Positions 5,656 to 36,155 of a stretch of 64,000 nt of DNA are shown piece by piece. The stretch covers positions 343,900 to 407,899 of the forward strand of contig CAWBVY010000001.1 of assembly GCA_963792415.1 (NCBI GenBank). Reading direction: 5' to 3'. A program made the translations under genes and the position numbers. Under the pieces are notes generated by a model, which saw only the letters and a list, made by a program, of their open reading frames with translations, was not told the origin of the DNA and did not search any database. The DNA comes from Candidatus Deferrimicrobiaceae bacterium. Its GTDB lineage: Bacteria > Desulfobacterota > Deferrimicrobia > Deferrimicrobiales > Deferrimicrobiaceae. Position 1 is the stretch's first letter. Each line of letters begins with the position of its first letter.

Positions 5656-6005
5656 TTTTACCACAGAGGCACAGAGTACGCAGAGATTTTTCCTTTTTTT
5701 CATTGTCGGTGATCCCAGTACCATCTAATAGAGCTACGGGACAAGGAGGCCGACAATGAAAAACCAATCTACAATTTCTATGAAATTAAGTGCCGGATTT
5801 TATTTATAGGCTGCAAAGCATATTCCACTGGGATCAAAGGATATGCCCCCCTTTAGGCAATAAAACACAATCTGTCGTAATCCCGGCGTCTATAGGAAAA
5901 ATTTAAAATTGAAGCGGATATCTTTATGTTTGCCGCCCTATCAACGGCAAACATAAAACAAGTACCCTCTTCTTCCTCCGTGCCTCGAGCGCAGCGGGTG
6001 GTGAA
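5656..6005. repeat. Family A element: left arm + hairpin A ... hairpin B + right arm
   Basis: taccacagaggcacagagtacgcagaga (5660-5686); ttttcattgtcgg...ccgacaatgaaaa; tttatgtttgccg..cggcaaacataaa; ctccgtgcctcgagcgcagcgggtggtgaa. Confidence 0.8.
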
Positions 6006-6020
6006 AACCTAAAGAAAGAT

Positions 6021-6222
6021 CTCACCACAGAGACACCGAGGACACAGCGAATTTTATTTTTCACCAAATCGGGAGACGACGATTTGATGAAACTTCTGTC
6101 CACAAATATCCAAATTTCACCCCAGAAGGTGAGCGGTTTTCATTGAGCGATGTCTCCTGCTCAATGAAAAAAATCTTAAACTCTCAGTGCTCTCTGTGCC
6201 TCAAGCGCAGCGGGTGGTGAAA
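6021..6222. repeat. Family A element
   Basis: ctcaccacagagacaccgaggacacag; hairpin loops gggagacgac and gatgtctcct (near reverse complements); ctctgtgcctcaagcgcagcgggtggtgaaa. Confidence 0.8.
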
Positions 6223-6260
6223 CCCTATTGATCCCCAACCTCCATTTGCGCAGCAAATAA

Positions 6261-7412
6261 ATGTCCAAAATCGTTAAAGCCCTCGAAAAGTATAAAAAAG
6301 AACACAACCTGACTTCGTCCCAGGTTTTCAATCTCGATCATGCGAAACCGCCTGAATCTGCACTGGATTCCGATGAAGACCAGTATATTCAGGAAAACGT
6401 CGATGCCGATGCGGCAAAAGAGTCGACGCAGCCGTATCCACAGCAAGAAGAAAGAATCGCTGTGCAAGTTGTTGATTCTCGCGAGGCATCGCAGCCGCAG
6501 GCTGATAGGCCTTTAAGTGAGCCGGCGAACATCGCGCCGAAACGAAGCCCCCATTTTGTTTTGGCCGATAAACAACCTGCAAAAACAGCATCCACAGAAA
6601 TCGAAAACAAAGGGAGGGTACCTCTCCTCGGTGACGAAAAGGCCAACCCGGCAACGCAACCACCAGAACTCACTTCGGCTGCCCCATCGGAGCCGACCTG
6701 CGCTTGCATGCCGTCAAATCGGTTCGCCCCGGACCTCATATCGATTGTCAATCCTCGCTGTGTCGAAGCGGAAATATTCAAGGTGCTGAGGGGTAAGATC
6801 CTTTTCCCGACTTCCGGCAAACCGCCGCGGTCCATAATGGTCACCAGCACGGTCCCGGGCGAGGGGAAATCCTTCGTTGCCGCTAATCTCGCCGTGAACA
6901 TGGCCCACAACATCGAAAAACACGTCCTGCTGGTAGACTGCGACATCCGCAGGCCGACCATTCACAAACTCTTTGGGATCGGCATGGTCAAGGGGCTGAG
7001 CGAGCACCTGTCGAATGGCAACAAGCTTCCCTCCTTGCTTCTCAAAACCGGAGTCGATAAGTTGACCATTCTGCCCAGCGGAACACCGCCCGCCAATCCA
7101 TCGGAACTCTTGTCCTCCGATAAAATGGCCGCCCTCATTGAGGAGCTCAAATCCCGCTATGATGACCGTTTTTTGATTATCGATTCCCCCCCGCCCATGC
7201 TGGGTCCGGAAACCACTGCCATCGCCAAGCAGGTCGACGGCATCATCGTGGTGATCAAGTTCGGCAGCACCCCGATGGATGCGGTCGAAGAGCTGATCGA
7301 CAACCTGGGCAAAGAAAAGATCATCGGCGCGGTCATCAACCGCTTCGATGGCCGCACCTCCAGATACTACGGCTACAAGAAATACGGGAAATATTACCGC
7401 AGCAAACCGTAG
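6261..7412 (+). CDS. Polysaccharide biosynthesis protein-tyrosine kinase (CpsD/CapB-like)
   Basis: Walker A GEGKS, LLVDCDIRRP, IIDSPP, Tyr-rich tail YYGYKKYGKYY. Confidence 0.92.
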   Translation: MSKIVKALEKYKKEHNLTSSQVFNLDHAKPPESALDSDEDQYIQENVDADAAKESTQPYPQQEERIAVQVVDSREASQPQADRPLSEPANIAPKRSPHFVLADKQPAKTASTEIENKGRVPLLGDEKANPATQPPELTSAAPSEPTCACMPSNRFAPDLISIVNPRCVEAEIFKVLRGKILFPTSGKPPRSIMVTSTVPGEGKSFVAANLAVNMAHNIEKHVLLVDCDIRRPTIHKLFGIGMVKGLSEHLSNGNKLPSLLLKTGVDKLTILPSGTPPANPSELLSSDKMAALIEELKSRYDDRFLIIDSPPPMLGPETTAIAKQVDGIIVVIKFGSTPMDAVEELIDNLGKEKIIGAVINRFDGRTSRYYGYKKYGKYYRSKP

Positions 7413-7469
7413 GTTTGTGTTTGTTGCGGGTTGTGTGTTGATTCAAGAGAAGTAAGCAGAGCAGCTGAA

Positions 7470-7982
7470 GGAATGGATTCGATTTGATGCTGAAAAGAAT
7501 TAGACAGGATAATCAGGATAAACATAAATATTCCTGGCTTTCCAGATGAAAGCCAGGAAGGCACTATCCGCCGCTTCACTCAATGATATTTTGATCTTTC
7601 GCCGAAGGCGATTGAGTTTTGCCTGTTTCATCCGGAAACAGGCAAAGCTAATAATTCAACAGATCCTGTAAATCCCGTCCAATAAAAAATCTTAAAATCG
7701 AATCCATTCCACTAAAATAAGAACTGGACAGGATAGACAAGATTGTCAGGTTAAATTTCCGGTTTCCAGCCTGCCCGCTGTGTCCTTTTTGGACTTCGGG
7801 AAGAAACCGAAAAACCAACACCCGCTTTCAGCGACAATAATATTTTTCGTATAACTGAAATGGTAGCCCTTCTCCGAAGGCGATTGAATTTTATAACTTT
7901 CTTCAGGAAAGTTATAAACAAAAAAATCCAAAAAATCCTGTAAATCCTGTCCAATAAAAAAACTTAAGATCGAATCCATTCC
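7470..7982. repeat. Family B elements, two units (7470-7710 and 7725-7982)
   Basis: Perfect 16-bp IR ggaatggattcgattt / aaatcgaatccattcc; gacaggat..caggat left arms; aatcctgtaaatcctgtccaa right arms; inner hairpins with complementary loops ttccagatgaaa / tttcatccggaa. Confidence 0.8.
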
Positions 7983-7996
7983 TCCAAGAGAAAAAT

Positions 7997-9134
7997 ATGC
8001 AAATCCCTTTCTTAGATCTCAAAGCCCAATACAAACAAATCGAGTCTGAAGTCGTCCCCGCCGTCACCGAAGCCATGGCCACCGGTATGTTCATCGGCGG
8101 CCCCCAGGTGTCCGGCTTCGAAGACGAATTCGCCCAATTTTGCGACAGCAAATACTGCATCGGCGTCGGTTCCGGCACTGACGCCCTCCGCTTCGCCCTC
8201 ATGGCGGCCGGCATCGGCCCGGGCGACGCGGTCATCACGGTCCCCAACACCTTCATCGCCACCACCGAAGCCATATCCCAGGTCGGCGCCACCCCGATCT
8301 TCGTCGACGTCGACCCCAAAACCTACACCATGGACCCCCAAAAACTAGCCGATTTACTGAAAAACAATCATAACAACAATCAAACCCACAACAATCCAAA
8401 TCGCCAAAGGCGTTATCCCCGTCCACCTCTACGGCCAGCCGGCCGACATGGACCCGATCCTCGACATTGCCCGGCAATACGACCTTGTCGTCATCGAAGA
8501 CGCCTGCCAGGCACACGGCGCCTCGTATAAAAACAGGAAGGCCGGATCACTGAGCACGGCCGGCTGCTTCAGCTTCTACCCCGGAAAGAATCTCGGCGCC
8601 TTCGGCGAAGCCGGGGCCGTCGTGACCCAGGATGAAGAGATGGCACAGAAGATGCGCATGATCCGGGATCACGGGCAGGCGCAGAAATATTTTCACGACC
8701 TCGAAGGCTACAACGGCCGCCTCGATGCGATCCAGGCCGCGGTGCTCCGCATCAAGCTGAAGCGGTTGCAGGGCTGGAACCGATCCCGCCGGAAAAATGC
8801 GGCCCTTTACACCGAACTCTTGCAGGACGTTCCCGGCATTACGCTGCCCGTGGAAGCCGAGTTCGCCGAATCGGTCTATCATCTCTACGTGATCCTTGCA
8901 GACAACCGCGATGGGCTTCAGAAGTTCCTTTCAGAAAAAGGCATCGCCACCGGCCTGCACTACCCGCTGCCGCTCCATCTGCAGAAAGCCTACGCTCACC
9001 TCGGCTATAAAAAAGGCGACTTCCCGGTCGCCGAGCACGCCGCCGAACGCCTCCTCTCGCTCCCCATGTACCCTGAGCTGACAGCAGAGCAGATCGATTA
9101 CGTCTGTTCATCTATCAGAGAATATTTTAAATAG
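7997..9134 (+). CDS. DegT/DnrJ/EryC1/StrS aminotransferase (WbpE/FdtB-like), frameshift near 8400
   Basis: GSGTDAL, VIEDACQAHG, FSFYPGKNLGAFGEAG, GYNGRLD, LSLPMYPEL. Confidence 0.92.
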
Positions 9135-9137
9135 TAA

Positions 9138-9410
9138 TTCACCACAGAGGCACAGAGAGCACAGAGAATACTTTTTTCTTTTCCTTTGCCGGTAGACAGC
9201 GGCAAAGGAAAACCAATCTGCACTTTCTACGAAATGAATTGCTGGATTGTATTCATAGGCTGCAAAGCATATTCCACTCGGATCAGCGAAAAAATAGATA
9301 ACCGTAAAGCCTGCCGCAGGCATGAGTTTATTTCATTTGCCGGTATCTCCCGGCAAATGAATGAACTAGACTCTCAGTGATCTCTGTGCCTCGAGCGAAG
9401 CGGGCGGTAA
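9138..9410. repeat. Family A element starting a few nt after the aminotransferase stop codon
   Basis: ttcaccacagaggcacagagagcacagaga ... ctctcagtgatctctgtgcctcgagcgaagcgggcggtaa, with two inner hairpins. Confidence 0.85.
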
Positions 9411-9430
9411 AAACCAAATAATAGATACTA

Positions 9431-9824
9431 ACCACAGAGACACAGGGAACACAGAGATATTTATTTTCTTTTCCTTTGCCGGTGCTTGCATCCCGTCTTG
9501 GCGGGGAAGACGACGGCAAAGGAAACCCAATCTGCCATCTGAGCAGGATTGCTTTACCTTCTTGAGTCTTTTGAACCTAATATAGAGGTGGCTATAAAAT
9601 ACATTGGAGTTAAGTGTTCCATATTTGGAAAAACTTCTGAACCTTACTCCCACAGGGATGAGTCCTTTTGTTCAATCGTCGCCAGCCCGCCATCGCTCCC
9701 TCGCTCAGGCGAGGCGGGCGGGTCTCCCGATTGAACAAAAAATAAAAAATCTCTCAGTGTCCTCAGTGTCTCTGTGGTAAAAAACATCATTAAACTCTCT
9801 TCGCACTTTGCGTCTCAGCAGTGA
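9431..9824. repeat. Family A element with micro-insertions in both hairpins and an extra right arm
   Basis: accacagagacacagggaacacagaga ... ctctcagtgtcctcagtgtctctgtggtaa, then aaaaacatcattaaa and a second degenerate arm. Confidence 0.8.
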
Positions 9825-9843
9825 ATGAATTAAAGGAGGAAAG

Positions 9844-10855
9844 ATGATTAAAATAGGGCTTATAGGATACGGCTATTGGGGACCGAACTTGGCCCGCAAC
9901 TTCCACTTCAACAACGACCTCGAGCTCATCGCCATCTGTGATTTTTCAAGCGATCGCCTGAAAGCCTCGTGCAAGCTCTACCCCCAAGTAGACTGCTATG
10001 ACAACGTCGACGATTTTTTCGCCAACACCGACATGGACGCCGTGGCCATCGCCACTCCGGTCGGCACCCACTTTGAGCTGGCCAAGCGGGCCATCGAGAG
10101 CGGTCGGCACCTGTGGCTGGAAAAGCCGATGACCGAAACGGTCGAGCAGGGCAGGGCAGCTGATCAAGCTGGCCAAAAAGAAAAAAAAGGTTCTCCTCGT
10201 CGACCACACCTTCGTCTACACCGGGGCGGTCCGCAAGATCAAAGACCTGATCCGCAAGGGCGAGCTGGGGCATATCATCTATTACGACTCGACCCGCATC
10301 AACCTGGGACTTTTCCAGCAGGACATCAACGTCATCTGGGACTTGGCGCCGCATGACATCTCTATCATGGACTTTCTGATGCCCTTCGAAAAGGTGGCCG
10401 TTTCGGCTACCGGCAGCCACTATTACGGCAACGGCATTGTGCCTAAATCGCTTTTGACCATCTATATGGCCGCCGATATCGTCGCCCACATCAACGTGAG
10501 CTGGGTCTCACCGGTCAAGATCCGCCAGACCCTGATCGGCGGCAGCCTGAAGATGATTCTCTACGACGACACACACCCCAGCGAAAAGGTCAAGATCTAC
10601 GACTCGGGCGTGGACCTCGACTTTACCAAGGAGGAACTCTACCACATGAAGGTCCAGTACCGGGTCGGGGACATGTACGCCCCCAAGCTGGAAGGCCACG
10701 AGGCCCTGGCTCTCGAAACCGAACATTTCGTCGACTGTCTGATCAACGGCACCGAGCCCTTGACCGGCGGCCGCGAAGGCCTCCAAATAGTAAAAATCCT
10801 CACCGCTGCCGAGCAGTCCCTAAAAAACAAAGGCACTCCCGTCGAATTGGTGTAG
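9844..10855 (+). CDS. Gfo/Idh/MocA oxidoreductase (sugar 3-dehydrogenase, WbpB-like), frameshift near 10150
   Basis: IGYGYWGPN, EKPM, VIWDLAPHD, SWVSPVKIR. Confidence 0.9.
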
Positions 10856-10878
10856 GATTCACCGCAGAAAGAACAAAT

Positions 10879-11232
10879 TTCACCACAGAGGCACAGAGGG
10901 CACAGAGATATTTCCTTTTTTTCATTGTCGGTGTGAGAGGCCGACAAGCAAAAGACAACTCACTGCAATAAATACTGAATATTGTAGATCTGCGTTTATT
11001 ACTGGATTATAGTACATAGGGTATGAAAACAACTGATTGTAAGGGTCGCAAATGAACTCCCTGTGACTCATGAGTGGAAAAACATAACTTCTTCGTCTCC
11101 GTGCCTCAGCGACGGATCTTCATTTGCCGGTCCTCTCACGGCAAATGAATATAATCAAATTCTCAGTGATCTCAGTGCCTCTGTGGTTAAAAACATCATT
11201 AAAGCTTGCGCTCTCTGTGCCTCTGTGGTGAA
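10879..11232. repeat. Family A element plus an extra right arm directly upstream of GxxExxY
   Basis: ttcaccacagaggcacagagggcacagaga; loops gtgagaggcc / gtcctctcac; tctcagtgatctcagtgcctctgtggtt; ctctctgtgcctctgtggtgaa. Confidence 0.85.
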
Positions 11233-11240
11233 TAATATTA

Positions 11241-11611
11241 ATGGACATCAATCAGCTAACCAGCAAGATCATCGGTGCGGCAATAGAGGTTCACAAAACA
11301 ATTGGTCCTGGTTTGTTAGAGGGGATATACGAAGACTGTTTATGCATTGAGTTAGAAAGGCGAGGAATTCCTTTTGAGCGGCAGAAAAGGATTGATATCG
11401 AATATAAAGGAGTAAAATTAAATAATCAATATCGACTTGACCTTGTTGTCAATAACATGGCTGTAGTTGAACTAAAACCGTAGATGAACTCGCACCAATT
11501 CATGATGCTCAGGTATTGACCTATCTCAAATTAACGGGCTTAAAGGTTGGTTTGCTCATCAATTTTAATACTGCAATACTTAAGGACGGTATAAAGCGTT
11601 TGATAATGTAG
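11241..11611 (+). CDS. GxxExxY protein (PD-(D/E)XK nuclease-like), frameshift in an A-run near 11475
   Basis: [22 protein letters not shown]...YRLDLVV...VELK, continuing [31 protein letters not shown]...KDGIKRLIM*. Confidence 0.9.
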
Positions 11612-11631
11612 AGTCAAGAGGTGATCATTAC

Positions 11632-11929
11632 TTTTGCCCTATCGCCGTCTCCCGATAGGACAAAAAACAAAATATCTCTCAGTGTCCTCAGTGTCGCTGT
11701 GGTAAATAAATAGCATCTTTTCTTAATTTTTCCAGTGCTTAAAGAAGGTATAAAACGACCTGTACCGTAGATTTACGAATTGCCGGAATTTCATCGACAT
11801 AGCCTGCCGCAGGCATGAGTGTGTTTCATTTGCCGGTATCCTCGCCCCGTAGCTCCAGCAGATGGTACCGGGGTTCCGGCAAATGAAATAAATATATCCT
11901 CTTTGCTCACTCTGCGCCTCTGTGGTAAA
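11632..11929 (+). repeat. Two tandem family A right ends (hairpin B + right arm)
   Basis: ttttgccctatcgccgtctcccgataggacaaaa + ctctcagtgtcctcagtgtcgctgtggtaaa; hairpin with a 33-bp insert + ctctgcgcctctgtggtaaa. Confidence 0.8.
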
Positions 11930-11935
11930 TAAATA

Positions 11936-12405
11936 ATGAAAAAAATAGCACCAGATGTCATCCTTGGCAAAGACGTCCAACTGAACGAATTCATCAACCT
12001 TTACGGCTGCACCATCGGCGACGGCACCAAGATCGGCCCCTTCGTCGAAATCCAAAAAAACGCCTCCATCGGCAAGAACTGCAAGATCCAGAGCCACACC
12101 TTCATCTGCGAGGGCGTCACCATCGAGGACGAGGTCTTCGTCGGTCACGGCGTCATGTTCATCAACGACAAATACCCCAAGGCCACCACCGACAGCGGCG
12201 GCCTGCAGACCGAAGCCGACTGGCAGGTCGTTCCCACGGTCGTCAAAACCAGAGCTTCTCTCGGCTCCAACGCCACCATCCTCTGCGGCGTCACCATCGG
12301 CGAAGGACGCCGTCGATCGGCGCCGGCAGCGTCGTCACCAAAGATGTACCGGCCAACACAGTAGTCGCAGGAAATCCAGCGTGCGTTTTGAAAAAACGCG
12401 GTTAA
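11936..12405 (+). CDS. Hexapeptide-repeat sugar N-acetyltransferase (WbpD/WxcM-like), frameshift near 12305
   Basis: NLYGCTIGDGTKIGPFVEIQ, CKIQSHTFICEGV, FINDKYP, ...VVAGNPA. Confidence 0.88.
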
Positions 12406-12919: not shown

Positions 12920-13096
12920 ATGAGAGGTATCCAATATGTAGTGGATGATTCCGGCCGGAAGAAGGCTGTTATCATCGACCTGGAAGAATGGGGAGAGTTG
13001 TGGGAAGATTTCTCTGACATACTCGTCTCCGAAACGCGACGAGAAGAGCCGGTTGTACGGTGGGAAAAGCTAAAAGCCGAAACAATGAAAAAATAG
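12920..13096 (+). CDS. Putative antitoxin (58 aa, not in the ORF track)
   Basis: RBS gaagga; MRGIQYVVDDSGRKKAVIIDLEEWGELWEDFSDILVSETRREEPVVRWEKLKAETMKK; directly upstream of RelE. Confidence 0.7.
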   Translation: MRGIQYVVDDSGRKKAVIIDLEEWGELWEDFSDILVSETRREEPVVRWEKLKAETMKK

Positions 13097-13109
13097 ATCC
13101 AAAGCATCG

Positions 13110-13364
13110 ATGTATAAAATTGAATTATTGAAATCTGCAGCGAAAGAGTTTCGTGATCTGGATGATACAACAAAGAGGCGAATCACTGAAAAAATAGATA
13201 AACTGATTGAGGAACCTCGCCCTAGAGGAGTACGAAAGCTTAGAGGGCATAAAAGTCTATATAGGATTCGCGTTGGATCTTTCAGGATCGTTTATGATAT
13301 TAATGAGGAAATAGAATTGATTCAAGTAACCAGGATCAGACATCGAAGTGAAGTATATAAATAG
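13110..13364 (+). CDS. relE: RelE/ParE family toxin
   Basis: AAKEFRDL...PRPRGVRKLRG...YRIRVGSFRIVYDI...IRHRSEVY. Confidence 0.9.
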   Translation: MYKIELLKSAAKEFRDLDDTTKRRITEKIDKLIEEPRPRGVRKLRGHKSLYRIRVGSFRIVYDINEEIELIQVTRIRHRSEVYK

Positions 13365-13506
13365 GAAGAGTTTGCTATCATTTTTACCCATTGGTGCTCC
13401 GGACAAAAAAACCCATTTAATCCTGCCTGCCCTGTTAAATCATTACCATTTAACCGGGGTAGCCCCTGCAGACGGTACTGGGGTCAACGATAAATAGAAA
13501 AAATGT

Positions 13507-13692
13507 TTTTATTCACCTGACTTGGAAGGGTTTTCTGGAATAGGCGACTCTATAGAGGATTGCCGGTTTAAAGCTAAGTGGGGTATGAAGGAACTTGTTG
13601 AATTACTAAAAGAACAGGGTCTTTTCGTTCCTTTAAAAAATCCAGATCCTAAAATTATAATTCAAAACGAAAAGAAATTGGCTGTAGAGTGA
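13507..13692 (+). pseudogene. 5'-truncated HicB-like antitoxin fragment
   Basis: FYSPDLEGFSGIGDSIEDCRFKAKWGMKELVELLKEQGLFVP...*; no start codon; begins just after a repeat. Confidence 0.55.
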
Positions 13693-13742
13693 TCTTGTAT
13701 TGACGATAATGAATGTGAAGACATTGAATTAGAAGTTATTTT

Positions 13743-13828
13743 TTCGCCTCAGGCGATTGGATTTTTTAACTTTCGTCCGGAAAGTTAAAAACAAAAAGAA
13801 TCCTAAAAATCCAGTAAATCCTGTCCAA
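13743..13828 (+). repeat. Family B right end
   Basis: ttcgcctcaggcgattg; hairpin ttttaactttcgtccggaaagttaaaa; aatcctaaaaatccagtaaatcctgtccaa. Confidence 0.75.
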
Positions 13829-13890
13829 TAAATTCATTTCTGTGTTTTATACATTGGTTGACTGTCGTAGCATATTGAGGAGGAAACCAT

Positions 13891-14154
13891 ATGCTTATTG
13901 AATATGTCAATAAAGCAATGAGTAAGGCGGTGTACGATAAGATGGATGATGGCACTTTTAATGGAAAGATACCGCAGTGCCCCGGCGTTGTCGCCTTTGG
14001 AGAATCACTATATCAGTGCGAGCAAGAGTTGAGATCCTCTCTTGAAGGATGGTTAATTGTCAAAATAAGACATGGCGATAAACTTCCGGTGATTGGAAAA
14101 ATAAACTTAAACAAAAAAATGCCGGATATTCGAGGGGCTACCGTGAATGGCTAA
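13891..14154 (+). CDS. hicB: HicB family antitoxin
   Basis: MLIEYVNKAMSKAVYDKMDDGTFNGKIPQCPGVVAFGESLYQCEQELRSSLEGW; strong RBS. Confidence 0.85.
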   Translation: MLIEYVNKAMSKAVYDKMDDGTFNGKIPQCPGVVAFGESLYQCEQELRSSLEGWLIVKIRHGDKLPVIGKINLNKKMPDIRGATVNG

Positions 14155-14377
14155 ATGGAGGCCTTGCAAACGAAGGGATTTCATAAAAAAGCTTAAGAAG
14201 CTCGGTTTCGGCTCACCTGAACCGGGCGGCCGCCATTTTTATATGCGTTATGGTTCATATACATTTACGCTACCAAGCAACAAGGAATTCTCTGTTCAGC
14301 AAGTCAAAATGCTCATAGATGAGATTGAACATGGGATAGGGAAGAATATTTCAATTGAAGAGTGGGAAAAGCTATAG
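14147..14377 (+). CDS. hicA: HicA family toxin
   Basis: PCKRRDFIKKLKKLGFGSPEPGGRHFYMRYG; overlaps the hicB stop. Confidence 0.85.
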   Translation: MAKWRPCKRRDFIKKLKKLGFGSPEPGGRHFYMRYGSYTFTLPSNKEFSVQQVKMLIDEIEHGIGKNISIEEWEKL

Positions 14378-14516
14378 CATAGAAAGAACTTGCGCTTTAT
14401 GAGGTATTAAAGCACTAACCGATTCTCTTGATGCGCCTTACCTGCGACCTCTTTTACCGTCATGTCGGATGGCCGGATTGGCAAGTTGAGTGTTTAATGT
14501 GTTTCTCGTTTTTGCT

Positions 14517-14849
14517 TTTTTTAGAGCGACAAAGTCGCGTTTCATAAATTTTTCGCCAGAAAAATCTATTTGCGCCTTTTACCTTTCTCCATTAACCTTT
14601 TACCAGTAATTACAAATAAACTCTATCAACCTTCAGCCCGTTAAATTTGCGTAAGCAATAGTGCAACGAATTTAACTGGGCCAATAAATTTAGCCTGTGA
14701 AATTTACGATAGTAACAGTGCAACGCATTTCACTGGGCATAAATAACTCAAAAAACGCAATAAACTCTATAAACTATTACCAATGACTCCTTTACTTTTT
14801 TGAGAGCGGCAAGGCCGCGTTTCATAAATTTTTCACAGAAAAATTTATT
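14517..14849 (+). repeat. Two family F copies flanking two ccgttaaat/ctgtgaaat hairpin micro-elements and AATAAACTC-type repeats
   Basis: 14517-14570 and 14797-14849 match the F consensus; 14635-14682 and 14692-14738 are gcc(c/t)gt(t/g)aaat...attt(a/c)actgggc. Confidence 0.7.
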
Positions 14850-14914
14850 TAAAATCAATTAATCAAGGTTTTGACCCTAAAATCAATAAGACGAGATAAA
14901 AAAAAGGAAAAAAT

Positions 14915-15145
14915 ATGAATGGCTTTATAGTTGTCGATCCGAAAATTTGCTCGGTAAAACCGGTTATCAAGGGCACGTGAATCATGGTGAAAAACATCCT
15001 TGGCATGGTGGCTGGCGGATATTCAGCGGATAGAATTTTGGAGGCTTATCCTGAACTGACACGTGAAATGGTTCAAGCGGCATTGGAATATGCTGCCATC
15101 GTAATTGACGAAGAGCAAGTTATTGGTACGATTGCCTCATCATAA
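14915..15145 (+). pseudogene. DUF433 antitoxin-like gene with an in-frame stop
   Basis: MNGFIVVDPKICSVKPVIKGT*IMVKNILGMVAGGYSADRILEAYPELTREMVQAALEYAA; TGA in place of the conserved Arg of GTR. Confidence 0.8.
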
Positions 15146-15224: not shown

Positions 15225-15330
15225 TGCCTCAGGTGGATGGACAATTTCAGTTTCTTCAGGAAACTGAAAATATATATTAATCCATTTAATCCCATGGATC
15301 CTGTCTAATTGATAATATAAATCGAATCCA
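15225..15330 (+). repeat. Family B right end
   Basis: Hairpin tttcagtttcttcaggaaactgaaa; aatccatttaatcccatggatcctgtctaa; aaatcgaatcca. Confidence 0.7.
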
Positions 15331-15351
15331 AACCTTGTTAATCAATAACAT

Positions 15352-16480: not shown

Positions 16481-17476
16481 GAGAGCATTGATAACGGGAG
16501 GCGCGGGGCTGGTCGGGTCGCATATTGCCGATCTTCTGGTCGAAGAAGGGGTTTCCGAGATCGTTGTTTTCGATAATTTTGATCGCGGCGGCGGGAAAAT
16601 CTGGCCTGGGCCATCGAAAACGGTCCGGTCACCATCATCGAGGGGGATATCCGCGACAGAGAATTGCTGGCCCGTTCAATGCAGGGAATCGACGTGCTGT
16701 TTCACCAGGCCGCCATCAGGATCACGCAGTGCGCCCAGGAACCGCGACTGGCACTCGAAGTACTGGTTGACGGTTCCTACAATGTCGTCGAAGCCGCCTT
16801 AAATGCCAAAGTCGAGAAGGTCGTCGCCGCCTCCTCCGCATCCGTCTACGGAGCCGCCGAAGATTTCCCCACCACGGAAAAACACCACTCTTACAACAAC
16901 CGGACAATATACGGTGCGGCGAAAGTCTTTAACGAATCTTTACTGAGAAGTTTCAATGAAATGTACGGTCTCGATTATGTCGCCCTGCGGTATTTCAACA
17001 TATACGGACCGCGAATGGACGCTTTTGGCGTCTACACCGAGGTGTTTATTCGCTGGATGGAGGCCATCGAGGCGGGAAAGGCACCCATGATTTTCGGGGA
17101 CGGAACCCAGACCATGGACTTCATTCATGTAAAGGATATCGCCAGGTCCAACATTCTCGCGGCGAAGTCGGCTGTGACCGACGATGTCATCAACATTGCC
17201 AGCGGTGAGGAGACCAGCCTGACCCAGCTCGCCGAGACGCTGCTGAAAGTGATGAAAAGTGATTTGCGGCCGGAATATGGTCCCGTAAGAAAGGTCAACA
17301 ACGTTCAACGCAGGCTCGCCTATACCGACAAGGCCAGAGAACTGCTGGGCTTTGAGACAACCATATCCCTGGAGGAAGGGTTGGCCGGCATGGTGGATTG
17401 GTGGCGCGAAGTAACCGCCAATCATAAAATGGCGGATCAATCGAAGGGGCAAGAACTTAGGCAGGCTGCAAACTAA
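16452..17476 (+). CDS. NAD-dependent epimerase/dehydratase, frameshift near 16590
   Basis: ITGGAGLVGSH, ASSASVYG, YGAAK, LRYFNIYGPR. Confidence 0.9.
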
Positions 17477-18295: not shown

Positions 18296-18311
18296 AACTC
18301 AGGTGTATATT

Positions 18312-18656
18312 ATTCACCGCTAGAGGCACAGAGGCCCGCCTGCCTTTCCTGCAGTGAGCCGGATGAAGCTAAAATGTATTACACATGTGGACTACTGACA
18401 AACTTTATGTTGGATAGTCCCCAACGATGAATGATTGGAACATATAAGATCTGTCGGCTGACGTTGATAAGTTGATTTCACAGTATATTCATAACCTCGG
18501 CCGCAGGGATAGAGTTCTTTTGTTCAATCGATCTTTCCCGATTGAATAAAAACTGAAATACTTACTCTTGCGACCTCTGTGCCTCGCAGCAGAGCGGGTG
18601 GTTAAAAATTCAAAACATCATGTGACCTCTGTGTCTCGAGCGAAGCGGGCGGTGAG
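18312..18656. repeat. Degenerate family A element with two right arms
   Basis: attcaccgctagaggcacagag; hairpin ttgttcaatcg..cgattgaata; ctctgtgcctcgcagcagagcgggtggt; ctctgtgtctcgagcgaagcgggcggtg. Confidence 0.75.
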
Positions 18657-28746: not shown

Positions 28747-29325
28747 CTCACCGCAGAGGCGCTAAGGATGCAGAGAATTTTGGATTTTTTGCTTTTCGCT
28801 GAGACGCCGAAAAGCAAAAAGCAACTTGCCCTTCGAATACAAGTGTCGACAAAAGAGTTATCAATTTAATTGGAAATAATAGATCACTTTAGATAATATC
28901 AGTCGGGATTATTCGCCAAAGGCGACAGCGTTTTTATGTTTTCCAGCGTCCCTGTCTTGTTGAATGAAAAGCAAATTCAACTGGGACCAGCGGAAAACAT
29001 AAAGAAGAATAAGCTCTGCGCTCTCTGGGTCTCTGCGGTGAATAATAAATATGTTGAGTCATACAGCCGATCCGTCTCCGGCAAACATAAAGGGCAATCC
29101 GCATTAAATGCGATAATTTCACGCCAAATTTCTAAAACTTAAAAGTTGTCACGAGCTTTAACCTCTTAGCACACAGAAGAAAGATAGAGATGCATGCAGT
29201 TTTGATTTCCTTTATCGTCCACTCAACGATAAAGGAAAAAAATATTTAAACTCTGCGCCCTCTGCGTCTCGAGCGAAGCCCCGGTGAAATGGCTTTCTGA
29301 TTTCACAGGGTAGGCGGGCGGTGAA
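28747..29325. repeat. Family A element (28747-29042) plus a tandem right end (29207-29325)
   Basis: ctcaccgcagaggcgctaaggatgcagaga; loop cgctgagacgc; ctctgcgctctctgggtctctgcggtgaa; ctctgcgccctctgcgtctcgagcgaagc[36 bp]gggcggtgaa. Confidence 0.85.
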
Positions 29326-29333: not shown

Positions 29334-29729
29334 ATGGACATCAATCAACTAACCAGTAAAATCATAGGCGCAGCAATTGAAGTTCATAAACATCTCGGTC
29401 CAGGACTCTTGGAATCGGCTTATGAAGAATGCCTTTGCCATGAATTAGAATTGCGCAGAATCAGATTCGATAGGCAGAAACCATTACCGATAGAATACAA
29501 AGGACGGAAGCTTGACTGTGGCTACAGACTCGATGTCCTGGTAGAGGATAAGGTTGTTTTAGAATTGAAATCCTGTGAAAAAATTGAACCTATCCACAAG
29601 GCACAGTTGCTGACATATCTCAAACTATCGAATATAAATTTAGGCTTACTGTTGAATTTCAATAGCATAACAATGAAAGAAGGAATAGTGCGCATCGCAA
29701 ATGAACTTCCCGATCGACAGGTAAATTAG
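29334..29729 (+). CDS. GxxExxY protein (PD-(D/E)XK nuclease-like), intact
   Basis: [25 protein letters not shown]...[18 protein letters not shown]...[10 protein letters not shown]...GLLLNFN. Confidence 0.93.
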
Positions 29730-29743
29730 TAGAGATTAAATCG

Positions 29744-29827
29744 TTTTCATTTCCGACCTCTCAACGGAAATGAAAATAATAAAACTACTCTGCGCTCTCT
29801 GCGCCTCGAGCGAAGCGGGCGGTGAAA
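29744..29827 (+). repeat. Family A right end directly downstream of GxxExxY
   Basis: ttttcatttccgacctctcaacggaaatgaaaa + ctctgcgctctctgcgcctcgagcgaagcgggcggtgaaa. Confidence 0.85.
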
Positions 29828-29848
29828 CATTTAAAAAAGGACAACCCT

Positions 29849-31061: not shown

Positions 31062-31062
31062 A

Positions 31063-31148
31063 TTCACCACCCGCTTCGCTCGAGACGCAGAGTGCGCAGA
31101 GAAAAGAATATTCATTTTCCTTTGCCGTTGAGAGGACGGCAAAGGAAA
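31063..31148 (-). repeat. Family A left end immediately after the aminotransferase stop codon
   Basis: ttcaccacccgcttcgctcgagacgcagagtgcgcagaga is the reverse complement of the long right arm; hairpin loop gttgagaggac. Confidence 0.85.
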
Positions 31149-31528
31149 AAATCGTCTTTGCTGCAGGTTTAAGGTACTTTTGTTAATCGTTATTTAAGAC
31201 AGCTTTTTTAATATCGAAGTCGTTCAAAGCAGTATAATCAGTGTTGCCACTGTCTATCAGATTACAAAGATAAATTTTTAGAGGTTCATTGCCACTAACC
31301 CCAGTACCATCTGCCAGAGCTACCCCAGAGGAATAGGCTACACATTCCACGGGGCAGGCGCGGCAGGGAGGATGGCAATCATAAAGAATAATCTGCTTTA
31401 AACACGAGCACAACTTGACATGAAATATGTGATGCATGAGCTGTTTCACAACACCACTTGTAACAACCAAATAATATGTGTATTTTGTATTGGATAGGGA
31501 CAACAGTACGTTTTTAAAGGAGGTAATA

Positions 31529-31823: not shown

Positions 31824-31965
31824 TAAGTACCTGAAGCAGTTCCGGCAAGCTGTTGGAAAGTTTGAAAGTTATGGATATGCAGAATCAGTAGAGATTAGAG
31901 AAGAAATACGGCCAAACAAACAAGCGGTTGTCAAAGCAAAAATCGTCCTCATTGATAGGAGATAA
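31813..31965 (+). pseudogene. N-terminal half of a DUF6516/TumE-like toxin
   Basis: MSLNKYLKQFRQAVGKFESYGYAESVEIREEIRPNKQAVVKAKIVLID, then it stops; overlaps the upstream stop. Confidence 0.5.
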
Positions 31966-31968
31966 GAA

Positions 31969-32172
31969 ATGGAAACAATAGACAAAAAATTCATTGTCGA
32001 TGAGGACAATAAAAAAATAGCAGTACAAATTCCCATTGAAACCTTCGAAAAAATTGAAAAAGTTTTGGAGAATTATGCTCTATTCCAATTGATTAAAGAA
32101 AATGAAGGTGAAGAAATTTTTGGACTGACAGAGGCAAAGGCATATTATGATCGGCTGGAAAAGACACAATGA
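31969..32172 (+). CDS. Putative antitoxin; the coupled downstream toxin appears deleted
   Basis: KFIVDEDNKKIAVQIPIETFEKIE resembles the 12920 protein; the stop overlaps an ATGA (MKI...) that quickly degenerates. Confidence 0.6.
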   Translation: METIDKKFIVDEDNKKIAVQIPIETFEKIEKVLENYALFQLIKENEGEEIFGLTEAKAYYDRLEKTQ

Positions 32173-32274
32173 AAATCGCTATTTCCCTTAACTCGAAAGA
32201 TTATAGTGGCCTAAATTTCCTTAAAAAAATCGTGACTATTTGTTTTGTTCGGAAGTTCCAAAAATAGCTTCGGG

Positions 32275-32376
32275 GCCTGCCCTGCTTGCCCTGTTAAATC
32301 ATTCCCATTTAACCGGGGTAGCTCCGGAAGACGGTACCAGGGCCTGCCCCGTAGCTCCAGAAGATGGTACTGGGGT
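32275..32376 (+). repeat. Stack of nested CCTGCC micro-elements
   Basis: cctgccctgcttgccctgttaaatcattcccatttaaccggggtagctccggaagacggtaccagggcctgccccgtagctccagaagatggtactgggg. Confidence 0.75.
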
Positions 32377-32447
32377 CAACAACAAAGGAAAAAAGAAACA
32401 AAGCACTCTGTGCCCTCAGCCTGCCCAGTTAAATTGCCGGAAAATCA

Positions 32448-32737
32448 ATGTATTATACTTACGTTTTATTGAGCAAGTTGGATAGAGCCCTTTATGTAGG
32501 ATTCACTAATGATTTAAAGAAAAGACTTTTAGAACACAAAAAAGCTTGGTCCCCTCGACTAAACCAAGACGACCCCTAATGCTTATTTATTATGAAGCAT
32601 GTTTAAATAGAAATGATGCTGTTAAAAGAGAAAAGTATTTTAAGACTGGTTATGGAAGACGTTTCCTTAACGGTCGATTGGAAAATTACTTAAAGAGTAT
32701 TGGTAAATCAGGCACGCGACCAGACGGTTTCGTTTAA
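32448..32737 (+). CDS. Small GIY-YIG nuclease, frameshift in an A-run near 32540
   Basis: MYYTYVLLSKLDRALYVGFTNDLKKRLLEH / LVPSTKPRRPLMLIYYEACLNRNDAVKREKYFKTGYGRRFL. Confidence 0.85.
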
Positions 32738-33055
32738 GCTTAAAAGAATATCTAGTAGTACATAGATAGGTTTTTAAGACAAAGGTTATAATAAACACAA
32801 AACTCTGTATTCTCTGCCCCCCGCCTGCCTCGCCTGAGCCCGCCTGCCTCGTAAGCTTTGCGGGCAGGTCCGCCCTCCTGCCAAGCAGAGTGAGGTGGAC
32901 GGGTCTGAGGTAAAAAATCTAAACGGAGAATCTGCGAACAGTTGACCTCCGGCAAACATAAATTGATTCCGCTTCGATAGTGGTCCTTGGATTACATTAG
33001 GGAAACTGAAATAATTTTGCTTATGTGCCTGCTATAAGCGTCGATGACAGTGTAA

Positions 33056-33130
33056 TTTTTCTTTGTCGTCAACTCAAAGACAAAGAAAAAAGTCAAAACT
33101 CTCTGCTTTCTCTGTGCCTCTGTGGTGAAA
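33056..33130 (+). repeat. Family A right end
   Basis: tttttctttgtcgtcaactcaaagacaaagaaaaa + ctctctgctttctctgtgcctctgtggtgaaa. Confidence 0.8.
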
Positions 33131-33138
33131 TTATTATT

Positions 33139-33297
33139 ATGACTTCAACTTCCCAAAACACCACCATCACAACTCTCTTGGCAGAAGAAATACCACCAAC
33201 GGATGAGAAATCCCCTGCTGAAAAAGACACTTACGGCCAGATACTAAAGTCCTCAGCCTTGGTTGGCTGCTCTTCGGTACTGAATATCGGATTCGAT
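33139..33297 (+). pseudogene. Orphan 5' end of the flippase gene
   Basis: MTSTSQNTTITTLLAEEIP..EKDTYGQILKSSALVGCSSVLNIG parallels MSSTPQNSTITTPLTDEIP..EKNTYGQILKSSALIGGSQVLNIG at 36169. Confidence 0.85.
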
Positions 33298-33382
33298 ATT
33301 CTTGCGCGAAGGTTTTTACCATGTCTCATTTAGAACCGTAAATGAATCGGAACGATATGACTATGAGTGAAAGGAAAAAGTA

Positions 33383-34387
33383 ATGGAAACATGTTTAGTG
33401 ACAGGTGGTGCAGGATTTATAGGTTCGCATGTAGCTAAAAATCTAATCGATAGCGGATATAAAGTCATCGTATTAGATGATTTGAGTGGCGGATTTATGG
33501 AAAATGTGCCATCAAAAGCAGAATTTATTGAGGGAACAATAACTGATAGGAATTTAATTAATGAAATCGTAAAAAATCAAAAAATTGATTATATTTTTCA
33601 CCTCGCGGCATACGCTGCTGAGGGCTTAAGCCATTTTATAAAAAAATTTAACTATGAGAACAATTTAATAGGCTCCATTAACCTCATTAATGCAGCTGTA
33701 AATTACAATGTCAGATGTTTTGTTTTTACATCGTCAATAGCAGTGTACGGTACTGCGCAATTACCAATGACAGAAGACATGACGCCAAAACCGGAAGATT
33801 CGTATGGAATAGCCAAATATGCAGTCGAATTAGAGCTAAAAGAAACACATGAAATGTTTGGTTTAAATTACATCATTTTTAGACCTCATAATGTTTATGG
33901 AGAGCATCAAAATATTGGAGACAGATATAGGAATGTAATTGGAATTTTCATGAACCAATTAATGAATCATAAAAATATGACAATATTTGGGGATGGGCAA
34001 CAAACAAGAGCCTTTACCTACATAGATGATGTCGCGCCAGTGATAGCAAAATCAATAGAAGTAAAGAATTCTTACAATGAAGTTTTTAACATAGGAGCTG
34101 ATAAAGCATACACTGTCAATGAACTTGCCAAAATTGTCGCAAAAAAGTTTAAGAATGAGTTTAATATAGATTATTTAGAACCAAGAAAAGAAGTCGTTCA
34201 CGCATTTTCAGATCATAAAAAATTAGAAAATATATTTGGAAACAATCCTAAAATACGGTTAGAAGAAGGTATTGAAAAAATGGCAAAATGGGCATTAAAA
34301 GTTGGGCCTAGGAAAAGCCAAAAATTTGGTAGCATTGAAATACTAAAAAATATGCCTGATAGCTGGAGGAAAGAGTTTAGCGATTAA
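33383..34387 (+). CDS. NAD-dependent epimerase/dehydratase (low GC)
   Basis: [35 protein letters not shown]. Confidence 0.92.
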   Translation: METCLVTGGAGFIGSHVAKNLIDSGYKVIVLDDLSGGFMENVPSKAEFIEGTITDRNLINEIVKNQKIDYIFHLAAYAAEGLSHFIKKFNYENNLIGSINLINAAVNYNVRCFVFTSSIAVYGTAQLPMTEDMTPKPEDSYGIAKYAVELELKETHEMFGLNYIIFRPHNVYGEHQNIGDRYRNVIGIFMNQLMNHKNMTIFGDGQQTRAFTYIDDVAPVIAKSIEVKNSYNEVFNIGADKAYTVNELAKIVAKKFKNEFNIDYLEPRKEVVHAFSDHKKLENIFGNNPKIRLEEGIEKMAKWALKVGPRKSQKFGSIEILKNMPDSWRKEFSD

Positions 34388-34444
34388 ATACAAACTATTA
34401 CAATAAGTTTAAGCTCCATACACATAACATATAGAGGGTCATCT

Positions 34445-35397
34445 ATGAAAAAACCCTTAATGCTGACAATATCGATCGTAAATACAAATAATAGAGACTT
34501 GTTAAGGAACTGTTTAATATCCATATATGAAACCGTAAAGAGATACAGGTACGAAATAATATTGGTCGATAATTGCTCGAAAGACGGTAGCGTTGAGATG
34601 GTAATGAAAAATTTTAAAGATGTCATTATCATTCAAAATAAAGGTACAATGGGATACGGATTCTGTCATAATCGTGCAATTAAAATAGCAAGAGGTAAAT
34701 ATGTTTTAATTTTTAATGAGGATATGATTGTCAAAAAAAATGCCATTGATTTAATGATTGAGAGGATTGAAAAAGATGAAACAATAGGCGTATTAGGTTG
34801 TAAACTTTTAAACCCTGATGGAAGTATACAATACTCTAGCTGCTCAAACTTTCCAAGTATAAAGCAACATATTGTTGATACATTCATACCGACGAATAGT
34901 GGCTTTAAAAATAATAAAAATAGAAGATTTTTATATTTTTTTGACTATAAAACTGAGAAGGATGTTAACATAATACAAGGTAGTTGCATGTTAATACCAA
35001 AAAAAGTTTTAGATGATGTAGGAATATTTGATACGCAGTTTTTCGTTTATTCTGAAGAAGACGATCTTTGCAAAAGAATAAAGAACGGTGGCTATAAAAT
35101 TATTATTATATCCTGATGCTGAGATCATACATATTGGCGGACAAACATCAAAAAAAATGTCACTGAAGGATGGCGTTGATAATGATAGAGAGTAAAATAA
35201 AATATTATCAAAAACATCACAGCAGGATAGAATTGACAATGTTTAAAATGATATATTTCTGTGGAAGTACTTTTAGATTAATTGGCTGGAGTGCAGCAGC
35301 CCTCACGAAAGCATACGACAAAAAATACTGTAAAGAAAACATTATTTTGAATCTCAAATCTTTAGAGTTAATAAGTAAAAAATTATTAGAAATTTAA
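34445..35397 (+). CDS. GT2 glycosyltransferase (rhamnosyltransferase-like), frameshifted near 35100-35170
   Basis: ILVDNCSKDGS, FNED, GSCMLI, FFVYSEEDDLCKR. Confidence 0.85.
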
Positions 35398-35543
35398 TAA
35401 AAAGTAAAGATAGAATATCAAACCACAATTAACAACAAACTTTCCGCGTTCACTATCATGTAGACTTATTCCAGCTGAGTTTAAGGTTTTAAAGGAATCA
35501 CTGCAGGGACGATGAAGACGCAAAGAGTTTTTGTTATAATAAT

Positions 35544-36155
35544 TTTCGCTGAAACCCGCCTTCCTCGCCTGAACCCGTCTGCTTCGCAAGCATTGCGGGC
35601 AGGCGAGAGCTATGGCGGGCAGGGGGCGGAGAGATGATTAAATTTTTTCATTGTCGGTGAGGGGCCGACAATGAAAAAGGCATCCGCCTTTTCTGATTTA
35701 CATTCTTATTGAATCGTAGTCGATAATTTTGCGTTTGATCCATTACTCATCAATTGGGCGTTAAAAGATGGAAGACAGCATAGTAAGGAATCGCAAATGA
35801 ATTGCCAGAGTGACCAAATAAACTTGTAGAGGTTTCCCTTATTCATTCCCGGTAGTCCCTGTCCAGTTGAATGCAAGCATATTCACTGGGATCACGGGAA
35901 TGAATAAATAAATAATATTCTCCTGTGCCCTCCGCGCTTCGAGCGAAGCGGGCGGTGAATAGCAAATTGGATTTACTGTTGAATTTCATACCTGTACCAT
36001 GAAACAAGGTATCTCCAGAGAAGAAAGTGTATTACCTGTGTGACCATATAAAACCTGCGGAGATTATCCATATTCATTTTCGTCCTCTCAACGAAAATGA
36101 ATATAAAAATATTACTCTCTGCGTCCTCCGCGTCTCGAGCGCAGCGGGTGGTGAA
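35544..36155. repeat. Family A element (left arm broken by CCCGCC/GGCAGG inserts) plus a tandem right end before the flippase
   Basis: ttttcattgtcggtgaggggccgacaatgaaaa; ctccgcgcttcgagcgaagcgggcggtgaa (to 35959); tattcattttcgtcctctcaacgaaaatgaata + ctctgcgtcctccgcgtctcgagcgcagcgggtggtgaa. Confidence 0.8.

Follow-up and report, generated by a model that had tools for sequence, protein, structure and literature searches.

The DNA analysed here is a stretch of 64,000 nucleotides from a Candidatus Deferrimicrobiaceae bacterium (contig CAWBVY010000001.1, positions 343,900 to 407,899), hereafter the window, and coordinates are counted from its first letter. Profile scans of the window place in it a locus of the XrtA/PEP-CTERM exopolysaccharide (EPS) type, with genes all on the plus strand. 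A chain-length determinant (3927-5402, +) and a tyrosine autokinase (6261-7412, +) belong to it, and downstream of the latter lie aminotransferases, epimerases, acetyltransferases, glycosyltransferases and Wzx- and Wzy-like genes, together with a flippase that starts at 36169 (+). Gaps between these genes are occupied by a family of repeats, here called Family A, in which left (L) and right (R) arms made of tandem heptamers are joined to hairpins, and two genes of the GxxExxY family lie among them. The copies and the two genes are as follows (nt, nucleotides; bp, base pairs).

5651-6005: element E1, with a plain L arm, a hairpin holding a nested small palindrome, an interior, a hairpin and an R arm of the GCGCAGC variant.
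6019-6221: element E2 (203 bp), with L arm, hairpin, interior, hairpin and variant R arm.
9138-9411: element E3 (274 bp), from an L arm to a variant R arm.
9428-9781: element E4, with L arm, nested-insert hairpin, interior, hairpin with a GCCCGCC-type insert and plain R arm.
9806-9825: weak extra R copy beside E4.
10879-11190: element E5 (312 bp), with L arm, hairpin, interior, hairpin and plain R arm.
11213-11232 (+): solo R arm, an exact 20-mer copy, 8 nt ahead of the start of GxxExxY-1.
11241-11612 (+): GxxExxY-1 (TIGR04256, 99 bits), its frame broken near 11470-11472.
11632-11706 (+): hairpin (loop GTCTCC) and R arm, directly 3' of GxxExxY-1.
11822-11929 (+): hairpin with a nested CCCCGTAGCTC..GGTACCGGGG insert, and R arm.
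18310-18656: group that starts with a degenerate L arm (18310-18335), an interior and a hairpin with variant R arm (18515-18605), and is closed by a solo variant R arm (18627-18656).
28747-29042: element E7 (296 bp), with L arm, hairpin, interior, nested-insert hairpin and R arm (CTCTGCG word).
29206-29325 (+): hairpin and variant R arm split by a 33-nt small palindrome, 8 nt ahead of GxxExxY-2.
29334-29729 (+): GxxExxY-2, intact, 131 amino acids (TIGR04256, 159.2 bits; PF13366 (PDDEXK_3), 156.9 bits).
29743-29826 (+): hairpin (loop CCTCTCAA) and variant R arm, directly 3' of GxxExxY-2.
31063-31149 (-): variant L arm and hairpin (loop GTTGAGAGGA on the plus strand).
33056-33129 (+): hairpin and R arm, an exact 20-mer copy.
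35848-35959 (+): hairpin with a nested insert, and variant R arm.
36070-36155 (+): hairpin and variant R arm, upstream of the flippase.

Matches to CACAGAGNNCACAGAG with at most one mismatch number six in the window and none in 100 shuffles. A looser double-heptamer pattern gives 21 matches, all at 5670-36132, compared with 1-8 in 20 mononucleotide shuffles; it occurs about once per 17 kb per strand in DNA of 63% GC, and was relied on only alongside a matched control. Two stricter patterns yield 22 arms (7 L and 15 R), 14 of them plain and eight of a variant, CTCGAGCG(A/C)AGCGGG, which carries a 13-nt insert. By eye we added the degenerate L arm at 18310-18335, R variants at 18565-18605 and, with a 33-nt insert, at 29251-29325, and two arm fragments (11097 and 32406). 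The total is thus about eight L and 17-18 R ends, all within 5651-36155, in agreement with the roughly eight left and more than 15 right ends given in a preliminary description of this DNA.

Every arm consists of two to three tandem heptamers of the form C(A/G)CN(A/G)AG and an almost invariant cap, TTCACC on the left and GGTGAA on the right. In this subfamily a subterminal hairpin adjoins most arms. Reverse-complementing the L arm TTCACCACAGAGGCACAGAG reproduces the R arm exactly. Five L ends turned round in this way and ten R ends can be aligned over a single module, made up of a hairpin, a linker rich in A and the arm (15 of the ~25 ends, nested-insert or hairpin-less ends being excluded). 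Most copies in the window are either L..R pairs that enclose no open reading frame (ORF), of which there are seven (203-355 bp), or single hairpin-plus-R modules. The interiors are partly homologous, as had been noted of the spacers; for instance, 5751-5836 matches 9200-9285 at 86%. R ends exceed L ends, and units of spacer or gene, hairpin and R arm stand in succession, which could reflect one-ended insertion beside an existing R end; by analogy, these serial units ending in R arms are the sole feature that recalls cassette arrays.

The insert of the variant arm holds GCGAAGC (or GCGCAGC) just inside TTCACC/GGTGAA, at 5976-6005, 9382-9411, 18627-18656, 29797-29826, 31063-31092, 35930-35959 and other sites. 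The DNA heptamer d(GCGAAGC) forms a very stable mini-hairpin. Beyond the own genome this variant was seen in one fetched locus only (L263), and a different insert occupies the same point of an L arm in genome G192.

The ends lie close to genes. L ends begin 4, 24 and 2 nt past the stops at 9134, 10855 and 31061, and R ends stop 40, 8, 7 and 8 nt before the starts at 6261, 11241, 11936 and 29334, and about 23, about 11 and 14 nt before those at 29850, 33141 and 36169. The placement proposed earlier, with L ends just behind stop codons and R ends 6-40 nt ahead of starts, therefore holds for L ends (2-24 nt) and for R ends at 7-40 nt, but not for the R end before the start at 9844, which is 63 nt off, or 19 nt if the weak extra copy is counted. 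Five arms overlap ORFs of at least 100 amino acids, and all five of these ORFs are opposite-strand shadows or have over-extended starts, so that no arm lies in a credible coding frame, as had been described.

Hairpins are present in 15 of the 15 aligned ends, with stems of 11-14 bp in single folds. Of their stem positions 95.8% are paired; random exchange of the 3' halves between copies lowers this to 58.7% (at most 75.2% in 1000 permutations). The stems co-vary, whereas every loop reads (C)CTCTCA(A) or GTCTCC and is oriented alike with respect to the arm. The preliminary description had named two hairpins, A and B, with variable but paired stems and conserved, reverse-complementary loops; all this was recovered, and the loops are complementary because A and B are one hairpin of one shared module, seen from both sides. 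RNAalifold on a MAFFT alignment, in which the 3' stem halves were out of register, did not show the hairpin and gave way to single folds and the permutation test. Whole elements also fold with the arms as closing stem, E2 as DNA (-33.8 kcal/mol, z -3.97) and E3 as RNA (-103.1 kcal/mol, z -6.60). Rfam covariance models gave no match at gathering score in the window, and one weak unrelated match (E 0.067) was their only result in 12 gene-bearing loci.

Both GxxExxY genes of the window exceed the curated TIGR04256 cut-off of 35 bits, and a tblastn search of the own genome finds the family nowhere beyond these two loci. Each gene begins 8 nt past an R arm and has a hairpin and R arm directly on its 3' side. 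The module at 29743-29826 also follows GxxExxY in locus L136 and at least in L189 and L200, and two metagenome loci, L187 and L189, likewise have an R-oriented arm just 5' of the gene. The usual form elsewhere is an L arm, a start codon 2-40 nt past the third heptamer, the ORF, and a stop codon that abuts the R arm. At full length this arm-GxxExxY-arm form measures about 435-490 bp and carries one gene, for a protein of ~125 amino acids; the L arm overlaps the 5' leader of this gene.

The linkage between arms and gene is strong in other genomes. In 56 of 80 independent metagenome loci the gene is bracketed (L arm within 150 nt upstream, R arm within 150 nt downstream), and in 74 one side or both have an arm, compared with 0 of 63 control pseudo-gene positions bracketed in the same loci. 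If the heptamer word is ignored, a strong inverted repeat flanks 53 of 78 genes versus 10-11 of 78 controls, and a stricter pattern finds 11 of the 30 best-scoring GxxExxY loci of a phylum sample bracketed. Across 201 genomes of the phylum the arms number 0-214 per genome, with at least ten in 33 genomes (maximum of the reversed-pattern control, 10); GxxExxY occurs in 29 of these 33 arm-rich genomes and in 42 of the 168 others (odds ratio 21.8, uncorrected for phylogeny). The co-occurrence with GxxExxY suggested earlier is thereby strongly supported, both by the bracketing and by the arm-rich genomes. The heptamer varies among elements (CACAGAG, CGCAGAG, CACGGAG, CACGAAG, CGCCGAG, CGCAAAG and others) around a near-constant TCACC end, and arms that belong to the same element resemble one another, with a mean local score of 23.1 versus 14.1 for permuted partners (maximum 15.7 in 300). 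GxxExxY itself reaches up to ten matches per genome, and on plasmids a relative was found in five records only. We also tried to assess co-direction of the genes that flank gene-bearing elements, but the open-frame test does not discriminate in GC-rich DNA (58/64 on the same versus 43/64 on the opposite strand) and was discarded.

The predicted protein of GxxExxY-2 has a PD-(D/E)XK motif (E27, D67 and E77-x-K79); among 89 sequences E27 and D67 are invariant, and E77 and K79 occur in at least 90%. Its structural model (pLDDT, predicted local distance difference test, 92.5) has almost only PD-(D/E)XK nucleases as neighbours (BpuSI, Cas4, BglII, NucS and Hjc), and since Z reaches 7.9 at most, the match is one of fold level. 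From motif and model the nuclease looks active. No relative with a solved structure was found by sequence in the PDB, and the family comprises 24,293 clusters at 50% identity (E<=1e-3). The best-scoring relatives in a library of 1.84 billion proteins (P0001-P0010) are two-domain tandem forms of 240-295 amino acids, and many single-domain matches have 20-70 extra N-terminal residues, which may represent starts called across the L arm.

Genome-wide spread is not supported for this organism, as every copy lies in the one locus. All arm matches with up to three mismatches fall at 349-377 kb of contig C1, and a degenerate pattern gives 19 matches versus 3 for its reversed control (these own-genome scans took in everything but a 72-kb stretch of contig C6). 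Moreover, none of 24 congeners, taken in one draw, has the arm. The exact 20-mer CTCTGTGCCTCTGTGGTGAA is nevertheless found in at least 120 contigs of many phyla, and the 20-mer loci among the matches listed are called the 120 loci below. Its hosts are Acidobacteriota, Planctomycetota, Alpha-, Beta- and Gammaproteobacteria, Chloroflexota, Cyanobacteria, Nitrospirota and Gemmatimonadota, as well as Bacteroidota, Verrucomicrobiota-type and Clostridia metagenome-assembled genomes (MAGs), two isolates and one Methanotrichaceae MAG. The 20-mer is also present in 44 viral-contig stretches, none of which holds GxxExxY.

Neighbouring arms in the 120 loci form converging L..R pairs in 94 of 126 cases. 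All but one of these pairs span 56-670 bp, mostly less than 300 bp, and no L..R distance of 700-5000 bp, the size of an insertion sequence (IS), occurs. Among 97 pairs there is no sign of target-site duplication: matches of k=4 were observed twice (0.63 expected) and those of k>=5 not at all, and direct repeats of 2-8 nt at the element ends are no commoner than with permuted flanks. The left flanks of these pairs are A-rich and the right flanks T-rich. In other genomes of the phylum only the end module (arm plus hairpin, ~83 nt), such as the first ~83 nt of E3, recurs, and the interior is absent. The genes next to arms elsewhere are of all kinds: at E<=1e-10 an EPS-type gene is found in 0 of the 120 loci versus 11 of 336 own-genome windows outside the locus, and the supposed tie to polysaccharide loci is not upheld. 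In four sediment metagenomes, contigs placed at 88% likeness heap on the repeat modules, with summed depths in the hundreds, and are thin over the genes; in none of the sequencing runs does the share of sampled words reach one half. These contigs contain many joints between repeat ends, which most likely come from other organisms because their sides are short.

Turnover of the elements can be followed in one arm-rich genus (g28), of which five species were compared at three orthologous sites between genes. Two of them (G128 and G091) share at site 1 a gene-bearing element that is identical at 453 of 454 positions, compared with 92.0% and 89.1% for its flanks, and the other three species have a solo L arm and an 83-bp pair without ORF. 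Site 2 holds a gene-bearing element in one species, a short pair with a different word in two, and an unrelated nested palindrome in two. All five genomes, and a second genus as well, retain the arm pair of site 3, with its interior swapped for other small repeats. The interior of one 284-bp L..R element, furthermore, is repeated at least 35 times in a sister genome. The content of these sites turns over, although some pairs are old, and one element is far better conserved than its flanks, which hints in at least one case at a recent lateral move into a site already taken. That the elements drive cargo insertion, as the preliminary description has it, is a conjecture: the comparison gave turnover at orthologous sites but no clean empty site.

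The EPS locus itself is low in GC and appears to have been acquired horizontally. GC varies from 34% to 66% across it, in a genome of 2.84 Mb whose contigs have 60-67% GC, and its DNA has no counterpart in 27 congeners, bar two trivial matches. From this mosaic and the missing counterpart we infer that the locus is foreign to the host lineage.

Taken together, we consider it somewhat probable (about 60%) that the Family A copies of the window are ORF-less relatives, similar to miniature inverted-repeat transposable elements (MITEs) or REPINs, of a ~450-bp selfish element composed of arm, GxxExxY and arm, and that they were imported with the foreign EPS locus. The nuclease would recognise the heptamer arrays and cut at or near the conserved termini, and the elements would spread without target-site duplication, at least partly by swapping the content of existing arm pairs in a manner similar to homing. 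The ORF-less pairs would ride on the nuclease, as MITEs and REPINs do on their enzymes, and the copies seen here may either have reached this genome with the EPS locus or have accumulated in it. That the structures are of the REPIN kind, as described earlier, or of the MITE kind agrees with the converging inverted-repeat pairs with hairpins and with the up to 214 arms per genome, a number that the window's own genome, with its one locus, does not approach.

Several points weigh against this interpretation. About 10 of the 80 metagenome genes have the reversed order R..gene..L, and those of the window are arranged as R-gene-hairpin-R; a simple element with terminal inverted repeats predicts neither. 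GxxExxY is missing from 4 of the 33 arm-rich genomes, 42 genomes have the gene yet few arms, and the co-occurrence statistic ignores phylogeny. No clean empty site or transposition event was seen, as the three sites are occupied in five of five genomes, and the site 3 pair fits a long-lived, perhaps useful structure equally well. The near-identical element of site 1 comes from MAGs, in which repeat collapse during assembly could fake identity. Copies in the own genome are diverged (~80-86% between interiors), confined to one locus and bear no sign of activity; the contigs of the four sediment runs reflect repeats abundant in other organisms and are not read as excision or inversion. Finally, we know of no strand-transfer activity in a PD-(D/E)XK protein of 125 amino acids.

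A more far-reaching version is tentative, and we would sooner doubt than accept it. Here the ~450-bp unit, a TTCACC-heptamer arm, GxxExxY and a heptamer arm ending in GGTGAA, would be a selfish element reduced to the minimum for autonomy and shorter than every known IS. By acting on the arm arrays its nuclease would mobilise both this unit and the derivatives that lack the ORF, with no duplication of the target, one route being homing into existing arm pairs. Together with elements of the intervening-sequence (IVS) protein it would make up a new superclass of 'tandem-word-armed' elements that seed operon spacers in most bacterial phyla. The IVSs of 23S rRNA, whose small ORF encodes a four-helix bundle (TIGR02436/PF05635), resemble Family A in placing a small ORF, or nothing, between inverted repeats. 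Of 30 TIGR02436 loci of the phylum (L287-L316), 22 have the gene between strong inverted repeats, versus 2-5 of 30 controls, and since these genes are bracketed likewise, the architecture of tandem-word arms seems to be more general than Family A. By eye their arms are tandem 7-8-mers of many words, none of the 30 having a CACAGAG-type word. In contrast to this similarity, the arm words and the protein folds of the two families differ, and no Family A copy lies in an rRNA gene. Both families are multi-copy in the same genomes, and TIGR02436 is absent from the genome of the window.

Family A also resembles free-standing homing endonuclease genes, in that a small nuclease gene is better conserved than its flanks, uses the same site across species and alternates with nuclease-less versions of that site. 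It differs from them by dozens of ORF-less copies at unrelated sites, for which homing gives no explanation, and its supposed target would be the arm pair instead of a host gene.

Among the alternatives, the one that survives best, though we regard it as unlikely, is that the copies act as operon punctuation in RNA, i.e. as transcribed structures for processing, stability or translation control (for instance RNase III stems) that persist owing to their usefulness and not to mobility; a ribosome-binding site could then be supplied by GGTGA in the R arm. The strictly intergenic copies with R ends 7-40 nt before starts, the very stable folds (z -6.6 as RNA), the L arm over the leader of the gene in full-length elements and the orthologous arm pair kept across two genera are all consistent with such a function, as is the g28 genus, where in five of five genomes an R arm ends 3-4 nt before the start of a conserved gene and no further purine-rich motif lies in that gap. 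A preference for G.U is normal in structured RNAs, however, and the mismatches between L and R arms lack this wobble signature (sense-strand G.U 61, A.C 55, transversions 111). This missing RNA-type bias argues for constraint at the DNA level, for instance by protein-recognised terminal repeats or copying, over a conserved RNA helix. A 20-mer that is identical in many phyla, tens to hundreds of copies in some genomes, copies in viral contigs, symmetric pairs that imply no fixed strand, and the empty Rfam search point in the same direction.

Somewhat less probable again is a role of the arms in controlling a toxic nuclease gene, with the 5' and 3' arms pairing to close the GxxExxY mRNA and the ORF-less pairs as its decayed remains. 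The start just past the L arm and the stop abutting the R arm would indeed give a panhandle transcript, the nuclease gene has an intact predicted active site, and toxin-antitoxin (TA) modules share the gaps of the window. Fold-back inhibition, which would be analogous, is familiar from the mRNAs of hok-type toxins. The ORF-less pairs, on the other hand, far exceed the genes (214 arms versus 4 gene matches in G209, 71 versus 1 in G176), pairs of 56-100 bp contain no gene remnant, and wobble bias is again lacking.

Ordinary MITEs of a catalogued IS, moved in trans by a conventional DDE transposase, are an improbable explanation. Bacterial MITEs include Correia/NEMIS, ERIC and RUP. Family A shares with them terminal inverted repeats (here ~28 nt), small size (60-350 bp), non-coding, intergenic and often co-transcribed copies in large number, and variable interiors. 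Two reviews (PMC3184786 and PMC2229807) deal with bacterial MITEs. Unlike MITEs, Family A lacks target-site duplications (97 pairs), and no parent IS with DDE transposase came to light: IS-sized arm pairs are absent from the 120 loci, no transposase family was detected among 30 scanned ORFs of the window, and the ORF-bearing relative has just ~450 bp.

We give very little credence to the proposal that the copies, which the preliminary description compared with attC sites, are recombination sites of an integron-like cassette array that assembles the EPS locus. Co-oriented genes separated by structured sites, R..R..R arrays in which each unit closes with the same hairpin and R arm (including the R-gene-hairpin-R order of GxxExxY in the window), and TA genes and small orphan ORFs in the gaps do resemble cassettes. 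The L ends, however, are the same module inverted in 7-8 copies, so that both orientations occur as converging pairs, and the outer end is GGTGAA with no RYYYAAC/GTTRRRY cores. Furthermore, no integron integrase (IntI) exceeds the cut-off (best TIGR02249 score 83.3 bits versus 265, with 72 kb of the genome outside the scan), the short pairs elsewhere are mostly cargo-free, and EPS genes show no enrichment.

A last candidate is a repetitive extragenic palindrome (REP) system served by a REP-associated tyrosine transposase (RAYT). REPINs are short inverted hairpin doublets, intergenic, with tens to hundreds of copies, genome-specific variants and no target-site duplication, and the cognate gene lies between two inverted repeat copies. 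Family A is alike in its inverted doublets that fold into long hairpins, its many intergenic copies with genome-specific variants, the lack of target-site duplication and the gene between inverted arms. It is unlike them in that this gene encodes a ~125-amino-acid PD-(D/E)XK nuclease (GxxExxY) and not a Y1 transposase of the HUH type, is often multi-copy (up to ten matches per genome), and is flanked by arms that are tandem heptamer arrays instead of small palindromes and whose word is identical across phyla. This candidate is largely refuted and hardly probable, as none of 8 Y1_Tnp loci in four arm-rich genomes is flanked by arms and G176, with 71 arms, has no Y1_Tnp match. The combination of REP doublets and Y1 transposase is treated in Bertels & Rainey 2011 (PMC3116915).

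Our searches of papers, in which subscription journals and supplementary files were outside the scope, brought up neither the arms nor their pairing with GxxExxY, almost nothing on GxxExxY proteins and nothing relevant on IVS proteins; together with the lack of an Rfam match this agrees with the earlier claim of an undescribed system. The GxxExxY family would gain a concrete candidate job, as a nuclease acting on its own flanks. A mobile unit would rank with the smallest self-contained mobile elements known, and its enzyme would be a compact nuclease that recognises a defined, repeated word. Much-encountered intergenic 'junk' of environmental genomes is explained as well, and so, probably, are many spurious short ORFs and over-long N-termini called across arms. 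For annotation, the repeats warn of horizontally acquired mosaic loci such as this EPS cluster.

Other repeats share the gaps with Family A. A small palindrome of ~29 nt, CCCCGTAGCTC..AGATGGTAC(C/T)GGGG, is nested in Family A hairpin loops and also found in other gaps (5716-5745, 11843-11875, 13450-13480, 31300-31330 and 32318-32380). Related CCC(C)GTTAAAT..ATTTAAC(C/T)GGG hairpins occur at 13420-13450, 14640-14740 and 32290-32320, and one such hairpin splits the R arm at 29280-29312. A GC-rich repeat, GCCCGCC..GGCGGGC (the 'cccgcctgcctcgcctgagcccgcctgc' type), is located at 9680-9725, 32810-32900 and 35555-35625; one copy lies within the hairpin loop of a Family A end, and another takes the place of the L arm ahead of the hairpin at 35640-35680. 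A second repeat family, with tandem words AATCCTGTAAATCC(T/C)GTCCAATAAAA and hairpins, occupies 7440-7990, 13740-13850 and 15230-15340. For three of the four sediment runs the summed depth of contigs is greatest in the bin 7740-7973 (743 in X1, 1031 in X3), and ATCCGTG-type words resembling this second family flank arm elements in other phyla.

Large gaps of the locus contain small ORFs of the toxin-antitoxin type, as follows.

12920-15145 and 31969-32172: TA-type ORFs, comprising a RelB-like ORF with ParE, a UPF0150/HicB-like ORF with HicA, a DUF433 fragment and a second RelB-like ORF.

Contigs of the sediment metagenomes show single-base indels at 10154, 11472 and 12307-12316. They are near the frame breaks of the Gfo/Idh/MocA oxidoreductase (9844-10855) and of GxxExxY-1 and might restore the frames; because these indels lie so close by, the many frame breaks of the window may be assembly errors or specific to the strain. 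The deletion at 10154 is seen in all four runs, and the insertion at 11472 in X4 only, where two contigs carry one extra base as a candidate frame restoration of GxxExxY-1.

A few weak matches were also recorded. A GIY-YIG domain at 32546-32737 stays under the cut-off of Pfam. The N-terminal part of a tyrosine recombinase at 47426-47725 (-), inside a 140-amino-acid ORF (47414-47836) and 11 kb past the last arm, reaches 41 bits with the integron-integrase model, far under its cut-off. ARAGORN reports a tRNA-Ala(GGC) at 17159-17234 (-), which lies within the epimerase frame at 16664-17476 and is probably false. In other genomes, a repeat of 45-94 bp with the form CCCCCTTT..GAAAAA..GGGGGAT (for instance L132:1119-1204) is present in dozens of copies per genome in one genus (G050, G091, G128, G161 and G221), and at one site it shows a clean presence/absence difference between two species.

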